A stretch of 64,000 nucleotides of DNA. Origin: an uncultured Prevotella sp. (GTDB lineage: Bacteria > Bacteroidota > Bacteroidia > Bacteroidales > Bacteroidaceae). The position numbers were made by a program, and so were the translations under genes. Below are positions 3,638-54,462 of this stretch, piece after piece. A model generated the notes under the pieces. The model was not told the DNA's origin and made no database searches. It worked only from the letters and a program-made list of their open reading frames with translations. The stretch is from positions 4,101-68,100 of the forward strand of contig CALUFN010000003.1 of assembly GCA_944319945.1 (NCBI GenBank), given 5' to 3'. The first letter of the stretch is position 1, and the number at the start of each line of letters is the position of its first letter.

Positions 3638-4423
3638 GTGGATAATAATAAAAGACTGTTCGTGTCCATGCGGGCAAGGATGGCGGCCGTTTTCGTGTTG
3701 CTTGCGGCCGTTCTGCCGTGCGGGGCTATGGATTTGTACGTCGTCCCGTATGTTGCGATGGACGATTCGGTAGGCAATATCGAAAAAGACGCATATCCTG
3801 AGCTTAATGATTCGGTCGCTAAAATCGTATCGGCGGTTGATTCGGCCAGTCTTGACAATGTCGGTAAGGTAGACTCGGTTATAGTTGAACGGAAGAAGGA
3901 AAAGCGCGATTGGTCGACATGGCGTCCGAGTGCCAAGCGTGCAATGTGGCTTGCCATTGTAATACCGGGAGCCGGCCAGATATATAATCGCAAATATTGG
4001 AAACTGCCCATTGTCTACGGCGGTTTTGTTGGATGCTTCTATGCGATAAGATGGAACAATCAGATGTTTCGCGATTATTCGCAGGCGTATATGGACATAA
4101 TGGACAACGACCCTAATACGCAGAGTTACAATCAGTTTTTACATCTCGGAGTGACGATTACTCCTGAGAATACCGAACATTATCAAGATCTGTTCAGGCG
4201 GCGTAAGGACTTCTACCGTAGGTATCGCGACTTAAGCGTGTTCATCCTTGTCGGCGTTTATGCCTTGTCCGTTATCGACGCTTATGTTGATGCGTCGTTA
4301 TCCGAGTTCGACATATCGCCTGACTTGAGCCTTAAGATCGAGCCTGCCGTGTTAAACAACGGTACGTCGATGAATCCGTTGAAGTCGTCGTCGCTCGGTT
4401 TCCAATGTCTGTTTACATTCTGA
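3638..4423 (+). CDS. DUF5683-family protein
   Basis: PSAKRAMWLAIVIPGAGQIYNRKYWKLPIVYGG and SVIDAYVDASL are typical of this family; usual Bacteroidetes position after parB. Confidence 0.8.
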   Translation: MDNNKRLFVSMRARMAAVFVLLAAVLPCGAMDLYVVPYVAMDDSVGNIEKDAYPELNDSVAKIVSAVDSASLDNVGKVDSVIVERKKEKRDWSTWRPSAKRAMWLAIVIPGAGQIYNRKYWKLPIVYGGFVGCFYAIRWNNQMFRDYSQAYMDIMDNDPNTQSYNQFLHLGVTITPENTEHYQDLFRRRKDFYRRYRDLSVFILVGVYALSVIDAYVDASLSEFDISPDLSLKIEPAVLNNGTSMNPLKSSSLGFQCLFTF

Positions 4424-8116: not shown

Positions 8117-8145
8117 AGGGAAATGGTAAAAAAGTAAAACCCCAC

Positions 8146-8210
8146 AACCGTATAACCTCAAACCGTATAACCTCAAACCGTATAACCTCAAACCCCTAAA
8201 ACCGTATAAC
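8146..8210 (+). repeat. Tandem repeat: 3 perfect copies of AACCGTATAACCTCA (8146-8190) plus a partial copy
   Basis: Read directly from the relA-pectinesterase spacer. Confidence 0.95.
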
Positions 8211-10220: not shown

Positions 10221-10440
10221 GTCTTATTCCTCCTTGATTTTAATGTTATATTTGCAAAGATACGATTTTTTCCTGTTCGTGCAATGATTTTATCGTAAAA
10301 TGTTATTTATCCGTCAAATATGATTTCGATTTGTACCCGTTACCGGCGGGCACTGATGCGTCAATATAAGGAAGAAGCCTATTATGTGGTTTATGCTTGA
10401 TTAACTTATTGATTTACAATGTTTTATGACGCGCCTTGCA

Positions 10441-10519
10441 AAAGGCCGCCTTTTGCCGTGTAAAAGGTAACCTTTCAGGCCGTAAAAGGTTGCCTTTGGC
10501 GTGGTTAATGGCAACCTTT
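10441..10519. repeat. 22-bp-phased palindrome array 1 (4 units)
   Basis: Units at 10441, 10463, 10485, 10507: AAAGGCCGCCTTT, AAAGGTAACCTTT, AAAGGTTGCCTTT, AATGGCAACCTTT. Confidence 0.9.
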
Positions 10520-10573
10520 TGCAAGGACATTGGCATGCGTTTTCACGTTGTTTGAAAAATAATCGCAATTCGT

Positions 10574-16451: not shown

Positions 16452-16455
16452 TTAT

Positions 16456-16570
16456 ATGAATTAAGAATTATGAATTAAGAGTTTCAATATAATTAAGAAT
16501 TAAGAGTTGAGAATTAAGAAAATATGACTTGTTGGAAATTTTCTTAATTCTCAACTCTTAATTCTTAACT
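16456..16570. repeat. Heptamer-built palindrome (perfect 31-bp arms 16493-16523 / 16538-16568)
   Basis: TTAAGAATTAAGAGTTGAGAATTAAGAAAAT and its exact reverse complement, with further TAAGAAT/TGAAT units upstream. Confidence 0.92.
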
Positions 16571-16572
16571 TC

Positions 16573-17208
16573 CTAATATCCCAAATCCTCGCCCACTAAA
16601 ACTACGGTGTGGCGGCCTGCCGGGTGTGAGTTGCGCATGAAGTGGATGTAGTTGCAGATGCTCTCGGGCGAGTTGCAGTTATGGCATACGCCGTCGATTT
16701 GGCAGGGGGTCTTGATGTCGAAGCGGGCTGCGTTGATGGGGCTGGCCGTCGAGCGGGCGCGCGCCAGCGCGCTTTCCACGTCTTGCGTCACCTTGTTGAG
16801 GCCCACCACGAAGATTACGTTCTTAGGCCCGAAGGTGATGGCGGCCACGCGGTTGCCGTTGCCGTCGATGTTTACTATCACGCCGTCTTCGCTTATCGCG
16901 TTGACGCTCGAGAGGTAATAGTCGGCCGAGAACGCCTCGCGGTATATGCGTTGGGCCTCGTCGCGGTCGGCGGCCAGGTCGCGGTCTAATATGTTAAGGT
17001 TGCGCTTGTGCAGGGCCTCGGTCAGCCCCATGTCGCGTATGGTCATCGAGCCGCCCCACGTAACGCTGCTTCCGTCGGGTATCATCGCCGATATCTTAAT
17101 TACGGCCTCGGCCGCCGTTGGGCAGTATGTTGCGTTAAAGTTACGCCGTTGCAGGTTTTTTATCATCTTCTGCGCAAGGCGTTCGTTGCGCGTTTCCTTA
17201 GGTGTCAT
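16573..17208 (-). CDS. LUD-domain (LutC/YkgG-like) lactate utilization protein
   Basis: VTWGGSMT, NAISEDG, NIDGNGNRVAA, VVGLNK and C-terminal CHNC...C motifs. Confidence 0.85.
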   Translation of the reverse strand: MTPKETRNERLAQKMIKNLQRRNFNATYCPTAAEAVIKISAMIPDGSSVTWGGSMTIRDMGLTEALHKRNLNILDRDLAADRDEAQRIYREAFSADYYLSSVNAISEDGVIVNIDGNGNRVAAITFGPKNVIFVVGLNKVTQDVESALARARSTASPINAARFDIKTPCQIDGVCHNCNSPESICNYIHFMRNSHPAGRHTVVLVGEDLGY

Positions 17209-17324: not shown

Positions 17325-17403
17325 GGAGGCCTTCTTCTGCGTCGTAAAAGGTAACCTTTCGCGTTGCAATAGGTTACCTTTTACGATGCGAAAGGTAACC
17401 TTT
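17325..17403. repeat. 22-bp-phased palindrome array 2 (4 units)
   Basis: Units at 17325 (degenerate), 17347, 17369, 17391: AAAGGTAACCTTT, ATAGGTTACCTTT, AAAGGTAACCTTT. Confidence 0.9.
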
Positions 17404-17657
17404 CGGATTGATAGCGTATGCCGCTCGTGTGCTTACGGTTTTCGTCGGTTGTTGCTACGGCTTGTGTTGTAGTGTAAGCTAAAGGATGCTTTGTACTTAC
17501 GGTTTTTACAGACTGACGGTTGCCAGCCGTGCCTCGTGCGTCTTATGGCGGCTTGTCGTGCCGCCGTAAATAAAGACGTGTTTACGTGATTAAAACATTT
17601 TGTATTTACATTGAAATGAGCTAACTTTGCAGCCCGTAATACAGACACCGCAAGTAG

Positions 17658-20747: not shown

Positions 20748-21770
20748 ATGAAAAATCTGGATTGGGCAAATTTGTCTTTCGGCTATGTTCCGACAGACTA
20801 CAACGTCCGTTGCTACTATCGTGACGGTAAATGGGGCGAAATAGAAGTGTGCTCTGACGAATACATCAAGATGCACATGGCAGCCACGTGTCTGCATTAT
20901 GGTCAGGAGGCTTTCGAGGGTTTGAAGGCTTACCGCTGTCCTGACGGCAAGGTGCGCGTGTTCCGTATGGACGAGAACGCCGCCCGCCTGCAGAGCACAT
21001 GCCGCGGCATTCTCATGCCCGAGGTGCCTACTGAGCTTTTCGAGGAAATGGTTGCTAAGGTCGTACGCCTCAACCAAGACTACATACCGACTTACGAGAG
21101 CGGCGCTACGCTGTACATTCGCCCGCTGCTTGTGGGCATGTCTGCCCAAGTAGGAGTGCATCCGGCTTCCGAATACCTGTTCATGATATTCGTTACTCCC
21201 GTCGGTCCTTACTTCAAGGGCGGGTTTGCCGCTAATCCTTACGTCATCATTCGCGAGTACGACCGCTCCGCTCCGCTCGGTACGGGTATATATAAGGTGG
21301 GAGGAAACTACGCCGCTTCGTTGCGCGCAAACAAGATGGCGCACGACATGGGCTACGCTTGCGAGTTCTATCTCGACGCGAAGGAGAAGAAATACATGGA
21401 CGAGTGCGGCGCTGCCAACTTCTTCGGCATCAAGGACAACACCTACGTCACGCCGAAGTCTACAAGCATCTTGCCGAGCATTACCAACAAGAGCCTGATG
21501 CAGCTTGCCGAAGACATGGGCATGAAGGTGGAGCGCAGGCAGATTCCAGAGGAAGAGCTTGCCACGTTCGAGGAGGCCGGAGCCTGCGGCACGGCGGCCG
21601 TGATAAGCCCTATTTCAAAGATAGACGACCTTGAGGAGAAGAAGAGTTTCGTGATAAGCAAGGACGGAAAGCCCGGTCCGATATGCACGAAACTTTATAA
21701 TAAGCTGCGTAACATACAGTACGGCATTGAACCGGACGTGCACGGATGGACGAAAGTTGTAATCGAATAA
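20748..21770 (+). CDS. ilvE: Branched-chain amino acid aminotransferase
   Basis: LHYGQEAFEGLKAY, KVGGNYA, LPSITNKS and GACGTAAVISPI. Confidence 0.95.
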   Translation: MKNLDWANLSFGYVPTDYNVRCYYRDGKWGEIEVCSDEYIKMHMAATCLHYGQEAFEGLKAYRCPDGKVRVFRMDENAARLQSTCRGILMPEVPTELFEEMVAKVVRLNQDYIPTYESGATLYIRPLLVGMSAQVGVHPASEYLFMIFVTPVGPYFKGGFAANPYVIIREYDRSAPLGTGIYKVGGNYAASLRANKMAHDMGYACEFYLDAKEKKYMDECGAANFFGIKDNTYVTPKSTSILPSITNKSLMQLAEDMGMKVERRQIPEEELATFEEAGACGTAAVISPISKIDDLEEKKSFVISKDGKPGPICTKLYNKLRNIQYGIEPDVHGWTKVVIE

Positions 21771-21863
21771 GTTAGGATTTAAGAGTTAAGAATTAAGAAA
21801 ATCATCGTTCAAGCATACTTTCTTATATTCTTAACTCTTAACTTTTAACTCTTAATCTTAATT
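21771..21863. repeat. Heptamer-built palindrome between ilvE and trmB
   Basis: TTAAGAGTTAAGAATTAAGAAA (21779-21800) versus TTTCTTATATTCTTAACTCTTAA (21819-21841), plus extra units. Confidence 0.85.
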
Positions 21864-22643: not shown

Positions 22644-22748
22644 AAGGGTGGAAAGGTAAAAAAGTAAAAAGGTAAAAAAGTAAAACTGCATCACAGGATT
22701 TGAATGCTTTACTCTTTTACCTTTTTACTTTTTTACCTTTCCACCCTT
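22644..22748. repeat. Octamer-built (GGTAAAAA) palindrome with 41-bp arms and 1 mismatch, between convergent genes; likely bidirectional terminator
   Basis: Arms at 22644-22684 and 22708-22748. Confidence 0.9.
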
Positions 22749-22755
22749 TCACTTT

Positions 22756-23853
22756 TTATTTTATTTGTACGATCTTAGTGGGGCTTTGTTCCTTATTCCG
22801 CCTGTTGGTCATCGTCACCACGGCTTGGGCGAGATTGATAAACGCCTGGCCGGTAACGGTGCCTGCGTTGAGGGCCGACGGTGTGCCCGCATCGCCGCTT
22901 TCGCAGATGCTTTGCACCATCGGAATCTGCGCCAATAAGGGCAGGCCCATCTCTTTTGCAAGGTTTTTGCAGCCGTCTTTACCGAAGATATAATATTTGT
23001 TCTCAGGCAGTTCGGCCGGTGTAAACCAAGCCATGTTTTCTACAAGTCCGAGTATTGGCACGTTCACCTTGTCGTTCCTGTACATGTCTATGCCCTTGCG
23101 AGCGTCGGCAAGGGCCACCTTCTGCGGCGTGCTCACTATCACGGCACCCGTTATGGCCAGTGTTTGCAGCAGCGTGAGGTGGATGTCGCTCGTGCCGGGA
23201 GGCGTGTCAAGGATGAAATAGTCAAGGTCGCCCCAGTCGGCGTCGCCGATAAGCTGTTTCAGCGCGTTCGACGCCATGCCTCCCCTCCAAAGCGTGGCCG
23301 TGTCCGGATTGACGAAGAAACCGATGCTGAGCAGCCTCACTCCGTATTTCTCTATAGGCTCTATCAGGGCGCGTCCGTCCTTGTTCACGGCGTAAGGGCG
23401 AGCGTCCTCAACGTTGAACATCTTAGGCATCGACGGACCGAATATGTCAGTGTCTAATAGGCCCACCTTGTATCCCAATCGTGCCAGCGCGATGGCGAGG
23501 TTGGCCGCCACGGTGCTTTTGCCCACTCCGCCCTTGCCCGAGCTTACTGCTATGGTGTTTTTCACCCCCGGCAGCATCTTGCCCGGCTCGGGGCGCGGTT
23601 TTGATTTAGTCTCTACGGTAATCGTCACCTCTACGTCTTTGTTCACATGATAATGTATGGCCGCTTCCGCCGCTTTAATCGTCGACTTCATGAAGGGGTC
23701 GGTGTCGCGTGGGAATATCAGCGAGAACGACACCTTCATGCCGTCAATACGCATGTTGTCGGCTATCATTTCGCTTTCAACCAGATTCTTTTTCGTGCCG
23801 GGATACGTTACCGTAGCCAGCGCGTCTGTTATTAATTTAGGATATAGTGTCAT
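22756..23853 (-). CDS. mrp: Mrp/NBP35 (ApbC) Fe-S cluster carrier ATPase
   Basis: N-terminal DUF59-like region, SSGKGGVGKST, DTDIFGPS, DTPPGTSD and ENMA. Confidence 0.92.
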   Translation of the reverse strand: MTLYPKLITDALATVTYPGTKKNLVESEMIADNMRIDGMKVSFSLIFPRDTDPFMKSTIKAAEAAIHYHVNKDVEVTITVETKSKPRPEPGKMLPGVKNTIAVSSGKGGVGKSTVAANLAIALARLGYKVGLLDTDIFGPSMPKMFNVEDARPYAVNKDGRALIEPIEKYGVRLLSIGFFVNPDTATLWRGGMASNALKQLIGDADWGDLDYFILDTPPGTSDIHLTLLQTLAITGAVIVSTPQKVALADARKGIDMYRNDKVNVPILGLVENMAWFTPAELPENKYYIFGKDGCKNLAKEMGLPLLAQIPMVQSICESGDAGTPSALNAGTVTGQAFINLAQAVVTMTNRRNKEQSPTKIVQIK

Positions 23854-23944: not shown

Positions 23945-24046
23945 TAAGGCTGTATGGCGCATTTCCAAAAGGTGTCCTTTTGCCTTGTGAAAGGTAACCT
24001 TTTGCCTCCTGAAAGGTTACCTTTTGCAGCCTAAAAGGTGGCATTT
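23945..24046. repeat. 22-bp-phased palindrome array 3 (4-5 units)
   Basis: Units at 23968, 23990, 24012, 24034 (AAAGGTGTCCTTT, AAAGGTAACCTTT, AAAGGTTACCTTT, AAAGGTGGCATTT), plus a degenerate unit at 23945. Confidence 0.9.
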
Positions 24047-24384
24047 TGCAATCCGCTCGGGCACGCGTGCCGCCTTGAGTCCGTATGTCGTTGACTTTCA
24101 GTGAGGAACGAATGCAATCCGGTCGGCATTCTGACGCGACTTGGCGGCTCCCCGCCCGGCCGGGGCGCGTGGGCGGATGAAAACCCGGACATTTGCTCGC
24201 GTGAAAATGAAACGATGGCGGCCGTTTGTCATGTTTTTATCAAAAAACATAGATTGGAATGCGTTTTTATCGGTAAAATTTGTTATATTTGCACCTCGTA
24301 AGCGAGACGTGGCCAATATGCGGCTTGCATGTTTACCGCGCTGGCGTTGCAGGGAATCTAATTAAAGTATAAACACTAAATTTT

Positions 24385-27846: not shown

Positions 27847-27904
27847 CCTTGTGTTGCGCCAGTCGTAAGTAGCTTGCAGTCAGGCTATTGCCGCAGGCCT
27901 TCTG

Positions 27905-27983
27905 GCTTGCCGCCTTTTACGCTGCAATATGCCGCATATTGCAGCGTAAAAGGTATCTTTTTACAGGCCGAAAGGCGGCCTTT
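27905..27983. repeat. 22-bp-phased palindrome array 4 (4 units, 2 degenerate), containing a perfect 19-bp-arm hairpin
   Basis: Units at 27905, 27927, 27949, 27971; CCTTTTACGCTGCAATATG-CCG-CATATTGCAGCGTAAAAGG. Confidence 0.8.
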
Positions 27984-28125
27984 TACATTGGGGCGGTCGG
28001 CTGCGCGCCTGCATCCAGATAACCGCTTGCAGATGAAAATAAAAGTTCGTTTCTTCGGCTTTTATTTTGTTTTTCGCCCGACTTGCACTATCTTTGCAGC
28101 GCAAAACGGAAATCATAAAGTAAAA

Positions 28126-35411: not shown

Positions 35412-36296
35412 ATGAGATTAGCGGCAATAGACATTGGTTCAAACGGAGCGCGACTGCTCATTAAGAACTTCAGGACTGCCCAAGACGGCAGCCAACAGAT
35501 TTCACGCGTGATGTACATGCGTGTCCCCCTGCGTTTAGGTTCCGACGTGTTCACGCTCGGAAAGATATCAAAGGAACGCGCGGTGATGATGAAGCACATG
35601 CTGAAGGCGTTTTACCAGCTGATGAAACTCAACTCGGTTGACGACTACCGCGCCTGCGCCACATCGGCCATGCGCGACGCCGAGAACGGCAAGAAGGTGC
35701 TCGACAAGCTGCGCAAGGCCACCGACATCGACATTGAGATAATCAACGGCCGCGAGGAGGCCCGTCTGCTGTGCAACAACATTGTGGAAAACATCGGCAG
35801 CGCAAGCGGCAATTACGCTTACATCGACGTGGGCGGAGGCAGCACGGAGATATCTCTGCTCCACGACGGGCAGCTCAGCCACAGTCACTCTTACAACATC
35901 GGTACGCTGAGGATGCTCGGCGGCATGGTGTCGAAAGAGACCGTGGAGAACATGAAGGCCGACCTTCGCCGATTCGCCCAAGACATGCCCGACGTGCGCA
36001 TGATAGGCTCCGGAGGCAACATCAACAAGCTCTTCAAACTCACCCACTCGGGCAAGGACCCGCGCGAGGTGACCATTGCCGAGATAAAGGATGTCTACGC
36101 CAAGCTCAAGCAGCTGAGCGTCGACGAGCGCATAGAGCAGTACGGCCTTAAGGCCGACCGCGCCGACGTGATCATTCCGGCGTCTGAGATATTCATGATA
36201 GTGGCCGACGCCCTCGGATGCGACAGTATACAGGTGCCTAACATCAGCTTGGCGGACAGCATCATCGACGGACTCTATCGCACGAAGTATGAATAA
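35412..36296 (+). CDS. ppx: Exopolyphosphatase Ppx/GppA (catalytic domain only)
   Basis: AAIDIGSN, ATSAMRDA, GREEA, DVGGGSTE and RADVI. Confidence 0.9.
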   Translation: MRLAAIDIGSNGARLLIKNFRTAQDGSQQISRVMYMRVPLRLGSDVFTLGKISKERAVMMKHMLKAFYQLMKLNSVDDYRACATSAMRDAENGKKVLDKLRKATDIDIEIINGREEARLLCNNIVENIGSASGNYAYIDVGGGSTEISLLHDGQLSHSHSYNIGTLRMLGGMVSKETVENMKADLRRFAQDMPDVRMIGSGGNINKLFKLTHSGKDPREVTIAEIKDVYAKLKQLSVDERIEQYGLKADRADVIIPASEIFMIVADALGCDSIQVPNISLADSIIDGLYRTKYE

Positions 36297-36428
36297 TTAA
36301 GAAAATGAATAATGAAAAATGAACAATGAAAAATCAGGGAATGAAAAACGAATAATCAGGATATGTGTTTCAGCTTGAACAAAGTCTAACCGGAATTTTT
36401 CATTGTTCAGTTTTAATTTTTCATTCGT
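36297..36428. repeat. AATGAAW heptamer-built imperfect palindrome after ppx
   Basis: AATGAAT/AATGAAA/AATGAAC units on the left and TTTTTCATTGTTCA...TTTTTCATTC on the right. Confidence 0.75.
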
Positions 36429-38163: not shown

Positions 38164-38289
38164 TGTTTGTCAGGTTTTAATGTATTACTTAACGCAAAGG
38201 TATCGTTTAAATCCAACAGTACAAACAAAATCGTTTAAAATCTCATCAAGTTTACGTTTTTTATATAAACCGAAATCGCACGAAATGCC

Positions 38290-38368
38290 GAAGGCCGTGT
38301 TTTGCGCCCTGAAAGGCGGCAAATGGCACGATGAAAGGTTACCTTTTGCAAGCCCAAAGGCCGTCTTT
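38290..38368. repeat. 22-bp-phased palindrome array 5 (4 units)
   Basis: Units at 38290, 38312, 38334, 38356: GAAGGCCGTGTTT, AAAGGCGGCAAAT, AAAGGTTACCTTT, AAAGGCCGTCTTT. Confidence 0.85.
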
Positions 38369-38473
38369 TGGAACGTTGAGTGTAATAAGCTGACAGCCAG
38401 TGGGTTATGGCGCGTGGTGAAAAGCGCGTCCATAAGTCGTCTGAAATGCGGGAAGTGCCGTTAAATTACCTTC

Positions 38474-50098: not shown

Positions 50099-50251
50099 TC
50101 TTATGCAAAGATAATGCCAGCGAGCGCAATGCAAGTTTACTTGTAAATTGCCGAGCGCAGCTTATCTTATCTAAAGATAATGCCAGTGAGCGCAATGCAA
50201 GTTTACTTGTAAATTGCCGAGCGCAGCTTGTCTTATGCAAAGATAATGCCA
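50099..50251 (-). repeat. 66-bp tandem repeat (2 full units + partial) upstream of lemA, each unit bounded by a -7 promoter box
   Basis: Units start at 50099, 50165 and 50231; TATCTTTG on minus at 50106-50113 and 50238-50245. Confidence 0.92.
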
Positions 50252-50417
50252 TTTGCCTGAATGTCATAGCTTTGTTAAGATTTAATTCAAATCTTTTTAT
50301 ATTTTATTCTTTTGCCGCTGTTCTTTTGCTTCACGGCTACTGTTGCGCATACGCTGCGGCGGCATGTACGGCATATGTTGGCACCTATCGTAACATGTTG
50401 ATTCATAATGTTTTATG

Positions 50418-50496
50418 AAAGGTTGCTTTTTACGTTGCAAAAGGTTGCCTTTTAGGCTGCAAAAGGTAACCTTTTACACGGCTTAAGGTAGTCTTT
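50418..50496. repeat. 22-bp-phased palindrome array 6 (4 units)
   Basis: Units at 50418, 50440, 50462, 50484: AAAGGTTGCTTTT, AAAGGTTGCCTTT, AAAGGTAACCTTT, TAAGGTAGTCTTT. Confidence 0.9.
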
Positions 50497-50558
50497 TACA
50501 TGAGCATTGCCGCTGTATAGCCCTTTAGGCCCGGACCGCAGGCTGTTAGTGTGGCATG

Positions 50559-51033: not shown

Positions 51034-51492
51034 ATTATCCTGTTTATGGCACCTGGACATAAGTGAAAGTTGGATGTCCGCGACGTGCGGTTTGTGTGTA
51101 AAATAATGCTTAAACCGCGTCTGGATGCCAGTTGAAAACTACACGGATAGCGGCTTTCAAAACAAAAGAAGACTCACTATCCTCATCTTTTTACCGCTGC
51201 AAAGGTATGAAAAATTTACTTACCAGCCAAGCATTTTTCGCTTTTTTGAACATTTTAATATATTGATGGTGTTTTGTATGTCATTGGTAATCAATGGTTT
51301 AATGTTGTTTTGTGTAAAATGTTTTAAACTCGTTTAATCATCCCGTTTCAGTCGTTTAACACTGCTCTGATGGTGTTTTTGCGCATGTCTTCACGGTGTG
51401 GCAGGCCGTGTCGACGGTCCGCCAAGCCGCCGTTTTTCGTGCAATTCTTATCATGTGTTTTCCTGAAAATTGCATTTGTCAGGAAAATTCCT

Positions 51493-54376: not shown

Positions 54377-54462
54377 TTAATTAAGAGTTAAGAGTTAAGA
54401 AAATACGCCCTTGCGGCTTTCCTAACTCTTAATTCTTAACTATAAACTCTTAATTCTTAATT
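54377..54462. repeat. Heptamer-built palindrome between fabG and the pseudouridine synthase gene
   Basis: TTAAGAG x3 on the left and CTCTTAA/TTCTTAA units on the right. Confidence 0.85.

Follow-up and report, generated by a model that had tools for sequence, protein, structure and literature searches.

A ~115-bp interspersed repeat with a polar dyad box in part of the genus Prevotella: an apparently undescribed REP/BIME-like element with an IHF-like head

The dyad box described here is the polar head of a non-coding interspersed DNA repeat that is ~115 bp long and confined to part of the genus Prevotella. The repeat is best read as REP/BIME-like, with the box as an IHF-like head, and it is apparently undescribed, since a search of the literature found no published description of it. 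Judged from its sequence, the repeat is an architectural element at the DNA level, and its head a predicted site for a bending protein of the IHF/HU type, with a probability of about 60%. It is the putatively bent head together with phased A/T-tract palindromes that points to a DNA-level architectural element. The conserved repeat fills roughly 1% of some Prevotella genomes and is under positional constraint.

The window, which is the whole stretch of 64,000 nucleotides that was analysed, corresponds to positions 4101–68100 of one contig (C3) of a genome of 2.58 Mb, with 88 contigs and 52.5% GC. The preliminary description had named six copies of a box with the pattern TAA-n5-TGA-n3-TCA-n5-TTA, five of them beside arrays of 22-bp units, and all six sequences are present where it placed them; at 10402–10426 the sequence reads TAACTTATTGATTTACAATGTTTTA and is followed by four 22-bp units. 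Iterative refinement genome-wide gave a 27-bp box, cGTAAC-n3-TTGAT-n-ATCAA-n3-GTTAC, which is the earlier pattern with further conserved bases. When scored with the genome-refined PWM, the boxes at 10402, 50391, 38383 and the solo copy at 51277 are strong, and the boxes at 24084 (12.9 bits) and 27866 (14.9 bits) are weak. The features in the window are as follows, with distances taken from the box centre to the nearest unit centre.

10401..10427, forward strand: element 1 box (head), TTAACTTATTGATTTACAATGTTTTAT; PWM score 23.3 bits; centre at 10414, 33 bp from the first unit centre.
10436..10525, forward strand: element 1 array of four 22-bp units; AAAGGnnnCCTTT cores start at 10441, 10463, 10485 and 10507.
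50390..50416, forward strand: element 2 box, GTAACATGTTGATTCATAATGTTTTAT; PWM score 21.4 bits; centre 21 bp from the first unit centre.
50413..50501, forward strand: element 2 array; units at 50418, 50440, 50462 and 50484; DNA fold z = -3.1.
38285..38374, reverse strand: element 3 array; clear units at 38334 and 38356, degenerate units at 38290 and 38312.
38382..38408, reverse strand: element 3 box, GTAATAAGCTGACAGCCAGTGGGTTAT; PWM score 23.1 bits; to the right of the array, 33 bp from the nearest unit centre.
23963..24052, reverse strand: element 4 array; units at 23968, 23990, 24012 and 24034.
24083..24109, reverse strand: element 4 box, weak and decayed; 12.9 bits; distance 56 bp, about 5 x 11.
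27865..27891, forward strand: element 5 box, weak; 14.9 bits; first detected unit 77 bp (7 x 11) away.
27901..27989, forward strand: element 5 variant array; perfect palindrome CCTTTTACGCTGCAATATG-ccg-CATATTGCAGCGTAAAAGG, then units at 27949 and 27971.
17342..17409, no strand assigned: boxless array of three units (array 2 of the preliminary description); no PWM match of at least 8 bits nearby.
51276..51302, no strand assigned: solo box, GTATGTCATTGGTAATCAATGGTTTAA; 21.3 bits; in a divergent intergenic region.

The centre of the element 2 box is 21 bp from that of the first unit, so this box adjoins its array directly. The degenerate units of element 3 were found by direct reading of the sequence, which also revealed that a perfect palindrome with 19-bp arms (27901–27948) takes the place of the first units of the array in element 5. 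A GC-rich palindrome sits between the array and the weak box of element 4. The preliminary description had reported array 2 as lacking a box, which is borne out by the absence of any match of at least 8 bits near 17342–17409, and the copy at 51277 is indeed solo, with no array within 100 bp. It placed each box within about 40 bp of an array end; more specifically, the centre distances of 33, 21, 33, 56 and 77 bp fall on multiples of 11. As single-stranded DNA, element 1 (10398–10532) folds with -29.9 kcal/mol and z = -5.3.

Other repeats were observed in the window. A 66-bp tandem repeat of 2.3 copies with 93% matches occupies 50099–50251 and is separated by 140 bp from the 50391 box downstream of it, and four copies of a 15-bp tandem repeat, GTATAACCTCAAACC, occupy 8134–8203 between two forward-strand genes. 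A second intergenic structure consists of two facing, inverted arrays of 7–8-bp units between genes, with the units GAATTAA/TTCTTAA, AGTTAAG/TCTTAAC, AAAATGA/ATTTTTC and AAAAGTAA/TTTACTCT. It is found at five places.

16455-16577: facing short-unit arrays.
21770-21861: facing short-unit arrays.
36289-36425: facing short-unit arrays.
54381-54462: facing short-unit arrays.
22652-22758: facing short-unit arrays.

At one locus of a related species (L090) the box and array element lies inside such a heptamer structure; in the present genome (C42) the heptamer arms stand alone.

Across the genome, matches to the unit core feature a sharp 22-bp spacing, with 565 successive pairs at exactly 22 bp. Chaining the core matches gives 272 arrays with about 1,000 units, and four units is the modal number (163 arrays). 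The box is found on one side only of 201 of the 272 arrays (108 left, 93 right), on both sides of 3 and on neither side of 68, and these boxless arrays mostly have just 2–3 units. The distance from box to unit is 21/22 bp in 103 cases, 33 bp in 47 and 44 bp in 14, with a tail at 55, 68 and 77 bp, which shows that the box shares the 11/22-bp lattice of the arrays. When the flanks are aligned by their distance from the array, single positions carry little information. An unbiased k-mer test determined that TTGATAATCAA-like words are 5- to 6-fold enriched in array flanks, and their offsets from the array end, 4–5, 16, 27 and 38 bp, increase by 11 bp at a time. The genome-refined PWM gives 242 matches of at least 16 bits, of which 181 are within 100 bp of an array, in flanks that make up 2.1% of the genome.

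Since the genome-refined PWM was trained on the flanks, three independent tests of the association between box and array were run. The literal pattern of the preliminary description occurs 14 times in the genome, 12 times within 100 bp of an array; when up to one mismatch is allowed there are 113 occurrences, 80 of them within 100 bp of an array. A PWM made from the six sites, scanned at 14 bits with the window left out, gave 2.43 matches per kb in array flanks (GC 0.45) and 0.19 per kb in other intergenic DNA, which is more AT-rich (GC 0.40). The preliminary description had taken equal frequency near arrays and in other AT-rich intergenic DNA as the result that would speak against the association; the excess in the flanks is 12.5-fold. 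The oriented consensus has no conservation outside the box at one end and the fourth unit at the other, and the length of the element is therefore about 111–123 bp. Of 204 boxed elements, 5 overlap a called gene. The earlier suggestion that box and array may be one composite element is supported by the one-sided position of the box, the 11-bp quantised distance and the pairing of units in register with the box, all of which describe a single phased element.

The array utilizes a unit with the consensus (G/A)C-AAAAGG-nnn-CCTTTT-G(C/T), which has the form GCAAAAGG-nnn-CCTTTTGC. The units are arranged in alternating orientation, and this includes the free centre base, with the 2:3 and 1:4 pairs as internal controls. 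The centre triplets are reverse-complementary in 47 of 130 arrays for units 1:2 and in 44 of 130 for units 3:4, compared with 11–20 for the other pairs. Watson-Crick complementarity at the free centre base reaches 53% for units 1:2 and 45% for units 3:4, where each of the four pair types occurs, and 23–27% in the 2:3 and 1:4 controls. Compensated double changes at conserved stem positions number 19 (1:2) and 21 (3:4) versus 5 and 4 in the controls, and perfect 13-bp stems number 32 (1:2) and 25 (3:4) versus 7. In three-unit arrays it is the box-proximal pair 1:2 that is complementary (15 of 23, against 4 of 23 for pair 2:3). Numbered from the box, the pairs 1:2 and 3:4 are thus inverted complements that form two tandem modules capable of making a hairpin or cruciform. 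The lowest-energy folds of individual copies use other pairings, 1:4 nested around 2:3 in element 1 and 2:3 in element 2; the units are so similar that a given copy can exchange one pairing partner for another.

The box behaves differently. Its variable positions (k6–k9) feature no excess complementarity or covariation (z from -1.1 to 1.3) and its four blocks are conserved, which fits a double-stranded site of a symmetric protein, unlike a hairpin; a hairpin was ruled out by the lack of covariation at these positions. Each half of the box reads (T/A)ATCA(A/G)-n4-TTA, and this fits the IHF consensus, WATCARNNNNTTR, with equal spacing. WATCAR is a known variant of the IHF consensus. At least one half matches WATCARNNNNTTR exactly in 86 of 204 boxes (the array-distal half in 70, the array-proximal half in 22 and both in 6). 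Exact matches to the IHF consensus, which is given as WATCAANNNNTTR (PMC10380432, PMC9452768), have a density of 1.35 per kb in array zones, 0.27 per kb in other intergenic DNA (a 5-fold difference) and 0.08 per kb in coding DNA. The genome encodes one HU-like protein and two further HU/IHF-family proteins that score best against the IHF-beta and IHF-alpha models, below the curated equivalog cut-offs. Homologues of this family in the genome measure 90, 93 and 97 aa. In the integration of CTnDOT, E. coli IHF can substitute for the Bacteroides host factor that the integrase needs (PMC2034462), which indicates that an IHF-like activity is present in the order. Genes for HU/IHF proteins and for an HU-related protein of about 150 aa were considered as a lineage-specific partner of the element and rejected, since they are equally present in congeners with and without it; they are therefore candidates rather than a specific partner. 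A homodimeric IHF-like protein would favour a symmetric double site. The match to IHF is a resemblance to its consensus, and a different symmetric protein could bind the box.

The box is also found alone. There are 61 solo boxes (at least 16 bits, more than 100 bp from any array), compared with 11 matches in the whole genome after local shuffling, so that about 50 exceed the chance expectation, and most are intergenic. Of the 61, 43 are outside called genes and 38 of these can be assigned to an intergenic class; 14 of the 38 are in divergent regions, which is an excess. A sub-family of solo boxes has the extended palindrome ATGCTAAATAnnTGAnAAAnCAAnnAnTTAGCAT (C41:16153, C15:2672 and C24:614), with the C41 copy beside an integrase gene and the C24 copy near a contig end. 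One box (C46:6921, 19.6 bits) is located about 250 bp upstream of an HU gene (C46:6403-6672), which may reflect autoregulation or chance. Clusters of solo boxes lie upstream of three large integrase genes on contigs C41, C77 and C88, at loci that appear to be mutually related. At C41:16153-18025, C77:5753-6141 and C88:87-1979 there are 2–3 box-like sites 27–484 bp upstream of tyrosine-integrase genes, and such sites also occur just downstream. No such clusters were seen at 24 large integrase genes in P. histicola and P. bivia. As a weak hint, the solo boxes near integrases fit a shared host bending factor that serves integrase complexes.

A scan of public genomes and species representatives found arrays almost entirely in Prevotella, in many MAGs and in the cultured species P. 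histicola and P. bivia. The two-unit pattern is present in 3 of 25 sampled congeners (this genome and two of 24 others) and was missing from all 16 other families sampled in the order. When up to 3 mismatches are allowed, this genome has 436 adjacent unit pairs, another genome (G019) 354, P. histicola 654 and P. bivia 107, and a reversed control pattern gives 0. As the third independent test of the association, the PWM from the six sites places the box beside arrays at the same distances in UMGS1360 (13 of 14), ERR527124 bin 3 (15 of 17), UMGS1733 (7 of 8) and P. histicola (8 of 11), and the box is directly visible when the copies of P. histicola, P. bivia and UMGS1360 are aligned. A variant architecture of the family is found in UMGS899 and ERR1190646 bin 12 (L045–L121), which have five-unit arrays with an asymmetric centre, GGAGTCC/GGACTCC, about 1/5 of which have a box. 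In P. histicola most of the copies shown (L056, L077, L099, L100, L102, L108 and L113) are preceded by a variable hairpin and a T-run, located just before the conserved TTTGTAAC of the box and terminator-like in appearance; no terminator-like hairpin upstream of the box was seen in this genome.

The copies are old and well separated in sequence, with a mean pairwise identity of 0.63, a maximum of 0.87 and no pair at 0.9 or above. Nineteen arrays from other species have flanks that align to this genome at 73–86%, and the orthologous site here is filled in 9 cases and empty in 10. At the filled sites, identity is 85% for the array consensus and 85% for the box consensus, 49% for centre triplets, 52% for spacers, 40% for the variable positions of the box and 54% for flanks, although this contrast between consensus and variable positions is somewhat inflated because the consensus positions anchor the alignment. 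The divergence between filled and empty sites is too great for exact junctions to be set, and no clear target-site duplication was read. Within the species, 10330–10560, which spans element 1, is 100% identical in 7 other metagenome assemblies that have an identical flanking protein. A DNA search of 60 congeners with the flanks gave matches to the arrays only, and a look-up with the protein adjoining element 2 found nothing. A metagenome scan found one relative of 56% identity without the element upstream of the gene.

The position of the elements relative to genes, taken from crude ORF-based gene calls made for this study, bears on two readings that would place the function in transcription. 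In one, the elements act as RNA, as bidirectional terminators, as hairpins that stabilise 3'-UTRs or as a small RNA gene. Their closeness to gene ends in tandem contexts agrees with this (median 36–68 bp to the preceding end and 137–172 bp to the next start), and so do the GC-containing stems flanked by A4 and T4 tracts, folds that are stronger than those of shuffled sequence (z = -5.3 and -3.1) and the separate small hairpin with a T-run before the P. histicola box. RNA-level selection was nevertheless rejected, because on the strand read by the upstream gene stem mismatches are equally G:T (126) and A:C (123), without the asymmetry between G:U and A:C that it would leave. Additionally, the elements occur in all four orientation classes (61, 55, 41 and 20) and are slightly over-represented in divergent regions (31% against a background of 24%), and the box is without covariation. 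At element 1 a scan called no terminator-like or promoter-like site, and Rfam 15 has no family for it, giving sub-threshold matches to generic hairpins alone; in the window as a whole, only a tRNA reached the gathering score. An RNA-level function is thus quite improbable. In the other reading, box and units are the sites of a dimeric transcription factor with a large regulon, which is improbable as well. Dyad-symmetric sites phased on the helix would suit such an operator array, as would the enrichment of solo boxes in divergent, promoter-bearing regions (14 of 38 intergenic). Most elements, however, are nearer to the 3' ends of genes than to their starts, the neighbouring genes give the informal impression of being mutually unrelated, and a pure operator leaves the complementarity of the centre bases in adjacent units unexplained.

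A non-autonomous mobile element of the MITE or REPIN kind is an unlikely source of the repeat. Here some enzyme would recognise the box and hairpins, the box would be its binding or cofactor site, as are the IHF sites beside the ends of IS10, Mu and gamma-delta, and the present copies would be old insertions. The high copy number and patchy spread (3 of 25 congeners and 0 of 16 other families) are in keeping with mobility. The same is true of presence and absence at orthologous sites, 10 of 19 filled elsewhere being empty here, and of hairpin modules that resemble REPs; Neisseria Correia elements too have an IHF site. What stands against it is that no two copies are as much as 90% identical, that there are no terminal inverted repeats, the two ends being a box and a unit, that no target-site duplication is clear at the highly diverged orthologous sites, and that conserved positions have been kept while others were randomised, unlike neutral decay. 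Mobilisation by a RAYT or IS200 enzyme was rejected because no Y1/RAYT transposase (PF01797) matches in this genome (91% complete) or in the complete genome of P. histicola. IS5-type ends were rejected as well: the BrickBuilt/ISPg ends, TGCAAAGGTCTC, resemble half a unit, but the sole DDE_Tnp_1 match in this genome is a decayed remnant, and the ends of the abundant P. histicola IS, ACGCGAGTTCGGGATAAG, are unrelated to the element. The preliminary description had compared the arrangement of core and phased accessory sites with a tyrosine-recombinase attachment site or a replication origin, the latter of the iteron type, and this does not hold up, with only a very slim chance left to it. Attachment sites are expected once or a few times per element, beside an integrase gene, and an iteron origin at a single locus that has an initiator gene and an AT-rich region for unwinding. 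The anatomy does recall IHF-bearing attachment sites and the lambda origin with its palindrome and four dyad iterons, and 7 of the 61 solo boxes are within 2 kb of integrase genes, a zone of 1.15% of the genome. There are, however, about 200 copies in 2.6 Mb, in every type of intergenic region, against 8 matches to integrase domains. The composite elements do not adjoin integrases and are stable at orthologous sites across species, and the association of solo boxes with integrases comes down to three related loci and is absent around the integrases of P. histicola and P. bivia. An iteron origin is further opposed by a frequency of about one copy per 10 kb and by the lack of conserved sequence past the element ends.

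The favoured reading of a DNA-level architectural element suggests the following mechanism. The box would be a double-stranded site bound by a symmetric DNA-bending protein of the HU/IHF family, and the array would present A4 and T4 tracts at each 11 bp together with paired palindromes. The whole element may bend or wrap DNA in an architectural role like that of E. coli BIME-1/RIP, and behind genes it could serve as a supercoil or transcription boundary. Its upkeep would be due to selection or homogenisation rather than to recent transposition. From the 11-bp lattice one would expect face-of-helix geometry on duplex DNA, and from complementary neighbouring units either pairing within single strands or cruciforms or else templated homogenisation; no one model yet covers both. 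A bolder, rather doubtful extension is that the repeat is a chromosome-architecture device of Prevotella, in which a symmetric IHF-like protein would sharply bend the head and a second factor would have the lattice wrapped, or extruded as cruciforms, around it, so that each genome would contain about 200 fixed boundaries of supercoiling or transcription. In another version of this extension, the repeat may be the substrate of a RAYT-independent system of propagation or homogenisation that recognises the box and hairpins. Prevotella dominates in the gut, mouth and vagina, and genetic tools for it are few. Two cultured species, P. histicola and P. bivia, have the element, which makes the idea of an IHF/HU-bound head open to testing. 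Should the head prove to be a high-affinity site of a Bacteroidota IHF/HU protein, that little-known protein would gain a natural consensus, with about 250 sites mapped in each genome, and the design of a REP/BIME plus IHF would have arisen independently, without a RAYT.

Comparison with known repeats sets the element apart from most of them. Unlike MITEs, it has no terminal inverted repeats, no near-identical copies and no cognate IS. Neisseria Correia repeat-enclosed elements are abundant, small and intergenic and have a functional IHF-binding site. The Prevotella element showed no sign of the features that mark them, namely 26-bp terminal inverted repeats, a TA target duplication and groups of near-identical copies. 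PINSR of P. intermedia is likewise an intergenic non-coding Prevotella repeat with about 180 copies and no terminal inverted repeats; its function is unknown, and it is conserved between strains and restricted to a lineage. PINSR differs in its length of 188 bp and in having been reported, by PCR, only in the P. intermedia group, and its published description mentions no 22-bp lattice or box. BrickBuilt of Porphyromonas gingivalis (PMC4596501) is also an intergenic element of Bacteroidales, with 23-nt tandem units flanked by a 'leader' and a 'tail'. BrickBuilt carries terminal inverted repeats of the IS5 type (GAGACCTTTGCA), occurs in about 19 copies and varies in its number of units, which lack paired inversion. 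The Prevotella element, present in more than 200 copies, is without such terminal repeats and keeps to a fixed set of four units.

The closest system is the REP/BIME family of E. coli, in particular BIME-1/RIP-RIB. Both have hundreds of extragenic copies with short imperfect palindromes in alternating orientation, both contain a module that matches the IHF consensus (in the Prevotella element as a sequence match), and both are found mostly behind genes, where the Prevotella element too would act at the DNA level. The description of REP/BIME by size and copy number, as 20–40-nt imperfect palindromes that are extragenic and present in more than 100 copies, applies to the Prevotella element. Unlike REPs, its unit is without the GTAG/CGTC tag and unrelated in sequence, and no cognate RAYT (PF01797) is found in this genome or in P. 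histicola. Unlike in BIMEs, the units are on a rigid 22-bp lattice from which the box is offset by 11-bp steps. The L linker of BIME-1 often bears an IHF site (PMC3333891). In BIME-1 that site is located between two REPs, whereas its IHF-like counterpart in Prevotella is double and symmetric and stands at one end of the element. The host differs as well, the phylum of the Prevotella element being Bacteroidota. The element would thus be BIME-like in its working but is not a member of the REP-RAYT family.
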